DNA from: a virus
Taxonomy: Duplodnaviria; Caudoviricetes
Length of the DNA: 37,988 nt
IMG/VR virus record: IMGVR_UViG_3300033407_000065
Coordinates: 1 to 37,988 of that record
Strand: one strand, 5' to 3'
A program made the translations under genes and the position numbers. The notes beneath the pieces were generated by a model that worked only from the letters and a program-made list of their open reading frames with translations, was not told the DNA's origin and ran no database searches. Positions 28,318 to 34,977 of the stretch are shown here, piece after piece. Positions within the stretch are counted from its first letter, which is position 1. Each line of letters opens with the position of its first letter.

Positions 28318-28733
28318 CCGATGACCTCCAGAATCTCGATACTCTCGAACGTTTGCTGGTAGTGCCGACGGATGGCCGTGGCGCTGGGCCAGGTGAGATC
28401 GAAAAAGTGGATTTTCCTGTCCGGGTCGAAAAATGGGCCCAGCTCCTCGCGGAGACGCTTGGGTGTTTTTTGAAGCATTGCGCGCTCCTTTGGTTTGTGC
28501 GCAAAACGGGAAACCGGCCGCAGATAGCGCTGCTCGGGGTGGTGGTTCTCAGAAGACACCCAAGCACCCTTCATGACGCCGTCGACGTAGGTTCCGATAC
28601 CCAGGCGGTTTTTACTCACCAGGGCACGCTGGAAGGTGACCTCACGACCATCGACCTTGAGCTTGACCATGCCGTAGGTGCCCGAGAGAGCCTTTTCGAT
28701 ACGGGTCCAGTCTTCCTTGTTCAGCTTGCTCAT
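28314..28733 (-). CDS. Conserved Mu-like hypothetical protein
   Basis: True start MSKLNKEDW at 28733 (ATGA overlap). V.L.VDG..VT...YVDG..KG.W pattern. Confidence 0.75.
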   Translation of the reverse strand: MSKLNKEDWTRIEKALSGTYGMVKLKVDGREVTFQRALVSKNRLGIGTYVDGVMKGAWVSSENHHPEQRYLRPVSRFAHKPKERAMLQKTPKRLREELGPFFDPDRKIHFFDLTWPSATAIRRHYQQTFESIEILEVIG

Positions 28734-28942
28734 GAGCGGCGCTCCTTCTCCTTGTCGATAGCAGTCACGGCGCGAACCTCGACCAGCAGGGCGGGATCGC
28801 GCTCGACCTGGCGGTACCATTCCAGCGGGACGGTGATGCCGAGGCTGAGGTAGGCGACGCCTGCCTGAATGTCGTTGCGCTTGTGCACATTGACGGAGCG
28901 GCAGAGCTGCGGGAATTGCGCGGGATTGCGTTTTGTGGCCAT
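28730..28942 (-). CDS. Hypothetical protein
   Basis: 70 aa, GGAGG RBS, coupled to the downstream gene. Confidence 0.6.
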   Translation of the reverse strand: MATKRNPAQFPQLCRSVNVHKRNDIQAGVAYLSLGITVPLEWYRQVERDPALLVEVRAVTAIDKEKERRS

Positions 28943-28968
28943 GGGCCCTCCATCTGCCCTCCTGGTTG

Positions 28969-29007
28969 AAAAAGTCCCCCTGCGCGAGAGGAGGGGCTCG
29001 CGCAGGG
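28969..29007 (-). terminator. Terminator-like hairpin after the ribozyme
   Basis: CCCUGCGCGAG-loop-CUCGCGCAGGG followed by GGACUUUUU. Confidence 0.55.
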
Positions 29008-29021
29008 CAGTGCTGCTGACT

Positions 29022-29101
29022 GTGGCTGCTCGTCAGGCCCCGGGCACCACCCCGGGACGACCCACCACTTTGCCGACGTCGGCAAAATGGTGGGTTTCGC
29101 A
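29022..29101 (-). ncRNA. Type II hammerhead ribozyme
   Basis: UGC-GAAA-[stem III]-UC-[stem I, loop GUGGUG]-CUGACGA-GCA-GCCAC. Complete catalytic core, GUC cleavage triplet and pseudoknot partner. Confidence 0.9.
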
Positions 29102-29105
29102 TGGT

Positions 29106-29417
29106 TCAGATGCTATTCAACCTCTCGACAACTTCAGCCTGAAGGGGACCATTAAATTCGATCGCCCAGTTACCCACCAGCACCTCGGGGTGAATCTCTG
29201 CCACAGCTTCCCACAGGTCGAAATGGGCAGCCCTATCTTGGCCAGCCTTTGCGGCACTGTATTTGTCGCCCAGCTCCCGAATGCGGCGTACCTTGTCGGT
29301 AGGTATTCTGAGGCGGCGTCCTTCGGGTTTCTTCATAGCGACGGGCTTCTTCTTCCAGAAATTCCTGTAGCAGAAGGCTTTTCCCCATGCCTTCAAACTG
29401 GCTTTAAACTTCGTCAT
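29106..29417 (-). CDS. Hypothetical protein
   Basis: 103 aa, ATGA-coupled, with RBS. Confidence 0.65.
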   Translation of the reverse strand: MTKFKASLKAWGKAFCYRNFWKKKPVAMKKPEGRRLRIPTDKVRRIRELGDKYSAAKAGQDRAAHFDLWEAVAEIHPEVLVGNWAIEFNGPLQAEVVERLNSI

Positions 29418-29547: not shown

Positions 29548-30168
29548 TCAGACCGCTGCCAGATCGAGGCTGATCTGCTTGTAGCTGCCGTCCTTCTGCC
29601 GCTCGTAAATGCGCAGGTAGGTGCTGGAGCCAACGACCTGGAGGCTCTCTTTGATGGCGTCCATGGCGCGTTTCCAGCGGGGGTCGTCGATGTCGTAGCG
29701 CTGCAGGGTGAGGATGCGGCGGATATCGAGCTTGCCCTCTTGGTTGACGGCGAAGGCGTCGTTGATGAGCACATGCAGGTTCTCGTTGCTGCCCTTGGCC
29801 CAGTCGTTGATGCACTCGTCGATGAGGGCCTTGGCGGCCTGGAGACCCTCGTCGAAGGTGAGGTGCTGGGCCTTGTCGCGGCGCACCTTGTAGCGGCCGT
29901 CATAGCTGAGCAGCTGCAGGTTGCCCTTGGCGCCGCCGAGCTTGACGCCGTACCGCTCGGCGGAGAGGTCGACCAGGGCGTCGATGTCGCCCAGGGCGTG
30001 CAACTTGAACTCGGCGAGCTCGGCGTGGTGTTGCTTGGCTGCCCTGACGATGTGGCGCACCAGGCTGTCGCGCTCTTTGTCGATGGGGCGCACCTTCTCG
30101 ATGCGGGTAAGGCGGCCCTGGGCGTCTTCCATGTATCCGGAGGGGATCTGCTTCTCTACGGTGCTCAT
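29548..30168 (-). CDS. DUF3164 family Mu-like phage protein
   Basis: Start MSTVEKQIPSGYMEDAQGRL. KGNLQL.SYDG, FDE.LQAAKALIDEC and W.RAMDAI.ES...Y.R.YER. Confidence 0.9.
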   Translation of the reverse strand: MSTVEKQIPSGYMEDAQGRLTRIEKVRPIDKERDSLVRHIVRAAKQHHAELAEFKLHALGDIDALVDLSAERYGVKLGGAKGNLQLLSYDGRYKVRRDKAQHLTFDEGLQAAKALIDECINDWAKGSNENLHVLINDAFAVNQEGKLDIRRILTLQRYDIDDPRWKRAMDAIKESLQVVGSSTYLRIYERQKDGSYKQISLDLAAV

Positions 30169-30169
30169 G

Positions 30170-30307
30170 TCACTTGCTCCTTCTGGGGATGTCGATGGTG
30201 CCGCCGCAGACCATGAGATTGGCGTGGTAGGCGGCTCGGTTGGCTCGGATGCGCCGCTCGCGGCGGAAGTGGATCCAGTTGGTGAGGCGTTCAAAAAAGG
30301 CTTTCAT
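30170..30307 (-). CDS. 45-aa basic small protein (not in ORF track)
   Basis: MKAFFERLTNWIHFRRERRIRANRAAYHANLMVCGGTIDIPRRSK. ATGA-coupled and exactly fills the gap. Confidence 0.6.
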   Translation of the reverse strand: MKAFFERLTNWIHFRRERRIRANRAAYHANLMVCGGTIDIPRRSK

Positions 30308-34934: not shown

Positions 34935-34977
34935 GGCCCCCTCCTGGACATGATCCGGTCTACAATCCGCCCGAATT

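Follow-up and report, generated by a model that had tools for sequence, protein, structure and literature searches.

In Mu-like phages of the Desulfuromonadia, a hammerhead ribozyme, a covarying hairpin stem, a CCUCC(U) loop complementary to the Shine-Dalgarno (SD) sequence and a U-run recur together, a combination that we refer to as the cassette. We examined it in the 38-kb IMG/VR virus record IMGVR_UViG_3300033407_000065, analysed over its full 37,988 nucleotides (nt) and called the window here, which derives from a Mu-like transposable phage with genes for a transposase, an AAA transposition protein, DUF3164 and GemA. The cassette occupies a slot in the early operon with the DUF3164 gene on one side and gemA on the other; this operon, and all window coordinates below, lie on the − strand. 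Taken alone the ribozyme is ordinary, the early operons of Mu-like phages being a published location for type II hammerheads, and the new part is the anti-SD hairpin behind it. We lean, on balance, towards a reading in which self-cleavage and a leaky terminator would together release a predicted anti-SD small RNA (sRNA) of ~80–120 nt, 90 nt in the window, that represses translation in trans.

The hammerhead spans 29020..29102 and is the sole RNA match at gathering level in the window: Rfam RF02276 (Hammerhead_II) aligns over model positions 1–66 with 62.3 bits against a gathering cut-off of 37 (E 9.6e-11), and none of 14 control genomes gives a signal (0/14). The initial annotation had described a complete type II hammerhead with all core bases, an open 3-bp stem II and a 15-bp stem III, and had proposed this covariance-model search; both the description and the score above cut-off agree with it. 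From 5′ to 3′, the element comprises the stem II 5′ strand UGC (29101-29099), GAAA (29098-29095), stem III with its ACGU loop (29060..29095; 15 bp plus A15.1-U16.1, hence 16 pairs, z −6.1), the GUC triplet (29061-29059), an 8-bp stem I with loop GUGGUG (29037..29058, from sequence and folding), the catalytic core CUGACGA (29030..29036), the stem II 3′ strand GCA (29029-29027) and the pseudoknot strand GCCAC (29022..29026). The core thus conforms to CUGANGA, the triplet to NUH, stems I and III are looped and stem II is open. Cleavage is predicted between 29059 and 29058 (feature 29058..29061), the cut named at the outset, on the basis of the GUC position in both the sequence and the Rfam alignment, which also places GAAA and the core. 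The GUGGU/GCCAC pseudoknot claimed earlier is likewise borne out by five complementary pairs between loop I (29050-29046) and the 3′ tail, where at least 4 bp are expected; this contact is a consensus feature of type II hammerheads (PMC3088659). The fold has a z-score of −5.4, and no shuffled sequence out of 200 was equally stable. We therefore take the type II hammerhead to be real, as judged from its sequence, with a predicted cut site.

Two further features of the ribozyme bear mention. The segment GUCAG (29016..29020) is complementary to the core CUGAC, with which it forms a predicted helix in the 3′ product in both the minimum-free-energy and the centroid structure; a complement of this type, matching the variable core base, is present in 5/22 cassettes versus 1/114 hammerhead-only copies. 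Stem III contains a near-palindrome (29068-29087) that recurs, with related long stems at loci L146, L155, L448 and L537; phages differ here by a compensatory change from GCCG/CGGC to GTTG/CAAC, and among the loci examined its pattern matched exclusively within hammerheads.

Behind the ribozyme lies a terminator-type hairpin with an 11-bp stem (28978..29007), whose anti-SD loop CCCCUCCU (28989..28996) is conserved and predicted to be unpaired (P 1.00). A U5 run (28969..28973) follows 4 nt beyond the stem. A terminator-like hairpin after the hammerhead had been noted in the initial annotation, and this stem and U-run match it; what had been overlooked was the near-invariant anti-SD loop and its resemblance to the host atoC motif. 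The hairpin ranks top in a terminator scan of the window that is overall not above chance (21 sites versus 15.1 ± 4.3 in shuffled sequence), and its significance comes from its conservation among relatives, not from that scan. It scores 30.9 bits on its own hairpin model (R1), the window being in the training set of that model. The terminator is probably leaky because U-runs are shorter in phage cassettes (median 5, n = 22) than in host copies (median 7, n = 11), and because of the 4-nt spacer in the window. The stretch from the cut to the U-run would give a 90-nt sRNA with a 5′-OH end (28969..29058).

The linkage of hairpin and ribozyme was recovered by several kinds of search. First, a CCTCCT plus T-run pattern that required no stem matched 21 IMG/VR loci, all of which contain hammerhead-like sequence; in all 21 a strong hairpin ending at the T-run has the CCTCCT in its loop, in a Mu-like context. 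Second, two IMG/VR scans that did not select for the loop, using only the hammerhead 3′ end and a T-run, returned at least 239 loci; as such loose patterns gave mostly chance matches, we counted a locus only if it passed a scripted check for the hammerhead. Among the matches listed for these 239 loci there were at least 20 distinct true hammerheads, at least nine of them with a strong terminator, and CCUCC was in the loop of nine of nine such terminators. A further loose CCUCC-pattern scan gave 120 loci and three distinct hammerheads. Third, when genomes of the class to which a Desulfuromonas metagenome-assembled genome (MAG) belongs were searched with Rfam alone, 15 genomes yielded 19 hammerheads, 7/19 with a scripted terminator and 7/7 of these with CCUCC; locus L528 forms an eighth host-class cassette, with the same hairpin and a U4 run. 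Two of the 15 genomes (G006 and G007) had first been found by the CCUCC pattern, and among the other 13 the cassette is present in six. A cassette is contained in each of the complete genomes G068 and G041. A phylum-wide draw gave six hammerheads, none with a terminator. Lastly, a hairpin model run over 97 loci produced matches at E < 0.001 at five places only, all behind a hammerhead; two of these matches (L536 and L085) are outside the training set.

The loop is rare elsewhere. Background counts of CCUCC at other hairpin plus U-run sites were 2/189, 4/182 and 3/299, and it is present in 3/76 strict terminators across 800 kb from two hosts, the count on which we rejected the idea that the loop reflects a generic host terminator style. 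Close relatives have different stems and an identical C/U-rich loop. The stem covaries, with 89% of cells paired and two-sided changes in 4/8 pairs, against 34–59% of cells paired in slid controls, and in 21/22 cassettes the CCUCC loop is predicted to be free of pairing (P ≥ 0.7). The RNAs predicted from the cassettes are 80–119 nt long, with a longer one at L535. That a ~90-nt RNA might be released had been suggested earlier, and the suggestion gains support in that the hairpin covaries and is conserved alongside the ribozyme; the RNA itself is a prediction from comparison. A search of RNA runs made with a related prophage locus (L539) listed none containing it, a result that counts neither for nor against expression.

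The ribozyme belongs to a wider lineage, for which a pattern scan returned at least 128 IMG/VR loci. Among the matches listed, 80 loci on 74 contigs have 4-kb flanks; a Mu-like early gene is nearby in all of them, and DUF3164 and/or GemA lies on the same strand in 77. The hammerhead starts at most 15 nt past an upstream stop codon in 111 of 112 distinct copies (at most 1 nt in 80), compared with 141/1520 random positions, and a start codon follows within 30 nt in 95 of the 112, compared with 615/1520. This placement at gene junctions fits the earlier suggestion that cleavage splits the mRNA upstream of the gemA block, as far as comparison can test it. Type II hammerheads have been proposed to process prophage polycistronic mRNA (PMC3088659) and are enriched near Mu-like phage genes (PMC10085705), and the role of hammerheads has been termed largely elusive (PMC6765202). 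The Rhodobacter phage RcWaterboi (MW677528.1) carries an unannotated copy in the same slot (L002:2985-3055, 65.8 bits), which spans the gap from the stop codon of an HU-like gene to the SD of the next gene, with no terminator behind it.

Other arrangements also occur. Cassette phages often carry extra hammerheads without the hairpin (L517 at G006:C7:93820-93887, G001/G068 and L147), one of which directly precedes the transposase gene while others lie beyond gemA. At L531 (G077) another kind of C-rich hairpin comes after the hammerhead; it lacks a U-run and adjoins a G-rich SD region. One additional base between CUGANGA and stem II is present at L523, L524, L531, L532, L537 and L005, and is common in the host class.

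The host class of the window is likely Desulfuromonadia, because its DUF3164 groups with those of L139 and L145 (support 100/100) and the L139 cassette lies in genome G068, one of those sampled from the same class as the Desulfuromonas MAG; the class name itself derives from record titles and RecA identity. Locus L448 (JBFWJC010000007.1) is titled Pedobacter sp., and its RecA is 88% identical to that of a Desulfuromonadales MAG and 71% to that of a Pedobacter MAG; it was drawn in the same class, its title is probably a mislabel, and we treated it as Desulfuromonadia.

The chromosomes of this class hold a related RNA. Of 151 genomes drawn from the class, 115 contain the atoC motif (RF01733), 73 of them with a score above cut-off; in the phylum-wide draw it is present in 5/151 genomes, all five shared with the class draw. 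In its published alignment, four of five rows seen have a terminator with a CCCUCCU loop (PMC2864571), and the phage cassette shares with it this loop, a GC-rich terminator and the same bacterial class; the window loop CCCCUCCU likewise tops a CCCUCCU-loop hairpin. We studied 20 host atoC copies in detail, mostly high scorers, and all 20 have a CCUCC-type loop. They differ from the phage copies in being chromosomal and often behind a sigma-70-like promoter (9/20 passed our rule), with a hammerhead in 0/20. Searching with the phage hairpin model gave 18 chromosomal sites in five hosts, 11 of them with CCUCC loops, and none in five control genomes; 5/11 of these host anti-SD hairpins passed the sigma-70-like promoter rule, versus 1/20 phage cassettes (within 110 nt). 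The ribozyme in the phage occupies the position that the promoter holds in the host, and where atoC has an A/U-rich 5′ region with a promoter-like element, the window has the hammerhead instead. A hairpin at the position of the first atoC hairpin (P1) is present at L135, L137, L139, L145, L155, L498 and L524. By sequence comparison the cassette resembles the 3′ half of atoC and is not a member by score. Multicopy sequences have been noted in Geobacter, hammerheads being unmentioned in passages of that report (PMC2996986).

We tentatively suggest, with confidence just under even, that Mu-like phages of Geobacter and Desulfuromonas relatives captured the class-wide anti-SD sRNA of their hosts (atoC), with the hammerhead replacing the promoter, and that early lytic RNA would thereby release a translation blocker that hijacks the host regulon. 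A type II cut keeps stem III on the upstream 3′ end and leaves a downstream piece with a 5′-OH and a hairpin cap, and such RNA should resist 5′-monophosphate-dependent decay. On the broader release reading that we favour on balance, hammerhead chemistry would have the early transcript of the window cut itself at 29059/29058; the upstream mRNA would then end 3′ in the stem III hairpin, and the downstream piece, with its 5′-OH, would be capped by the stem I hairpin. The leaky terminator would end part of the transcripts at 28969 to give the sRNA, and read-through transcripts would supply the gemA block. The exposed loop, a complement of the SD, could then cover strong AGGAGG sites on many mRNAs in trans, probably aided by host Hfq, and its targets would more likely be host mRNAs than one fixed phage gene. 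The cassette would in effect be a promoterless copy of the host atoC-type RNA, timed by early lytic transcription.

A number of results weigh against this reading and lend some weight to others. The cassettes are related to one another. A DUF3164 tree, from which 4 of 45 rows were dropped because they lacked a full-length DUF3164 match, needs six gains or losses of the cassette and is compatible with one origin, so the cassette counts are not fully independent. A single origin would also suit a neutral history, in which a host terminator fragment was acquired once behind an ordinary hammerhead and its loop has no function. We regard this as highly improbable, as stems, linkers and neighbouring proteins have diverged (the TnpB proteins of cassette phages are 32–78% identical to that of the window) whereas the loop core is nearly invariant and the stem covaries. 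Eight of the nine IMG/VR cases from the loop-unselected scans are also present in the CCUCCU-pattern set. Most hammerheads of the lineage have no terminator: among the matches listed, a hairpin of terminator type follows in 3/139, strong and with CCUCC in two cases, weak and lacking it in the third, and the ribozyme therefore needs no hairpin. The resemblance to atoC is itself partial. The sole phage match to the atoC model (positions 31–93, just behind the ribozyme of one cassette) scores 28.9 bits, below the 50-bit cut-off; the window RNA gives no match to that model at E ≤ 10 and, on folding, lacks P1. The host of the window, moreover, is assigned through relatives.

The way in which atoC has been catalogued also weighs against a trans-acting RNA. 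It is tabled as probably cis-regulatory (PMC2864571), and in 15 of the 20 host copies a crude open reading frame (ORF) call puts the following ORF in the same orientation. Were the phage element to act likewise, the hairpin would terminate transcription ahead of the gemA block in a regulated way, with read-through set by a protein or antisense RNA bound to its loop, while the ribozyme would merely segment and end-protect the mRNA and the 90-nt piece would be a by-product. The cassette is always upstream of genes, mostly with a few to ~30 nt from the U-run to the next start, and the short phage U-runs, the gene-junction placement of the whole hammerhead lineage and the published proposal of mRNA processing (PMC3088659) all agree with such an attenuator. 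We nevertheless consider it unlikely: the downstream genes vary among phages, 5/20 host copies face a convergent ORF, an exact anti-SD loop exposed in the finished terminator suits pairing after release, and across the 97 loci the phage hairpin was found only behind the ribozyme, which a plain attenuator does not need.

The search for pairing targets also went against release of a trans-acting RNA with a phage target. A permutation test of the loop flanks against the start regions of 14 phage genes, with start codons called by script and some of them wrongly, found no covariation (best P 0.021, uncorrected). The longest loop complements hit different genes in different phages, and we rejected a fixed phage target on these two grounds. 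Among nine genes of the window, the best loop pairing (−16.8 kcal/mol) is with the SD of a CII-like regulator gene (34934-34458), and orthologues of this gene show no cognate pairing advantage (P 0.31). This SD (34938-34945) is an 8-nt perfect complement of the window loop. At L148 the loop is perfectly complementary over 13 nt to the SD region of gemA, at +635 from the core, a match not found in the other phages. The lack of a covarying target among the 14 genes would be expected of a decoy, in which the released RNA titrates a partner of host atoC, be it Hfq (encoded in 5/5 hosts examined) or a host sRNA that carries GGAGG, without itself repressing mRNAs; its loop and taxonomic range are those of the host RNA. 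We think this quite unlikely, no partner being known and an identical seed more simply copying than opposing the action of the host RNA. Pairing in cis is less probable again. On read-through transcripts the loop might bind the SD of the gene that follows, damping its translation, and the window loop does have a 7-nt perfect complement, AGGAGGG (28963-28957), just beyond the U-run, as does L154; an alternative fold pairs the 5′ arm with this region. A complement of at least 6 nt between the U-run and the first start occurs, however, in 2/22 cassettes only, and we rejected cis pairing with the next SD as a general mechanism. The release of an sRNA that acts in trans remains the reading that we prefer.

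The gene order around the slot is as follows. Upstream, the DUF3164 gene, at the Gam position (29548..30171; PF11363 E 2e-80, phrog_846), is followed by a 103-amino-acid ORF (29106..29417) that found no family match in profile searches and whose stop codon (29108-29106) lies 5 nt ahead of the ribozyme GCGAAAC. A 262-amino-acid ORF running through the ribozyme (29102-28314) was set aside as a chance extension, with a family match confined to residues 126–260. The first gene beyond the terminator (28730..28963, including AGGAGGG) is a 70-amino-acid ORF (28942-28730) with a weak homolog downstream of the L523 cassette (32%, E 4e-5). A phrog_5671 gene (28733-28314), a 50-amino-acid NrdD C-terminal peptide (28317-28165) and gemA (28184-27720) come next. 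The stand-alone NrdD peptide (PF13597) overlaps the start of gemA; it is found downstream of the cassette in 14 of the 21 loci selected by the CCTCCT pattern and in just one of the 80 flanked lineage loci, that one a cassette phage.

Compared with type II hammerheads as published (RF02276, PMC3088659), the window element shares the core, the open stem II, the pseudoknot and an intergenic place in a prophage, and differs in that its 3′ product is ORF-less and ends ~90 nt on in a conserved anti-SD terminator; passages of that paper describe no anti-SD partner element for these ribozymes. The cuckoo, alpha-r14 and RSs0680 (CcsR) sRNAs (RF02344) are a precedent for sRNAs with anti-SD loops, for which pairing in trans has been proposed (PMC4615179). 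As described in passages of that source, where a ribozyme is unmentioned, they are alphaproteobacterial and have 2–4 adjacent hairpins each with a CCUCCUCCC loop, whereas the window has one hairpin and scores 11.2 bits on RF02344, where the cut-off is 58.8. Maturation of a non-coding RNA by a phage ribozyme has its closest precedent in the theta ribozyme, which lies beside tRNAs in gut phages (PMC10879173) and for which such a role has likewise been proposed. Theta ribozymes are, however, of the hepatitis delta virus-like type and trim tRNA 3′ ends, whereas the hammerhead here would form, and stay in, the 5′ end of a regulatory RNA. No hammerhead plus anti-SD cassette was found in the literature searched by title and abstract start, a search whose coverage excluded most subscription papers.

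The cassette gives one set of phage ribozymes a specific, testable output, namely a discrete RNA with predicted ends, in which the loop seed can be mutated and the catalytic core left intact, or the reverse. For atoC, an orphan Rfam motif that most genomes of this environmentally important class carry, it supplies a counterpart in phages, and this link offers a handle on the function of both RNAs. Were the capture of the host sRNA to prove true, the cassette would be a natural ribozyme-matured regulatory sRNA, some phage self-cleaving ribozymes would gain a concrete job, and atoC would be reclassified as a trans-acting sRNA.
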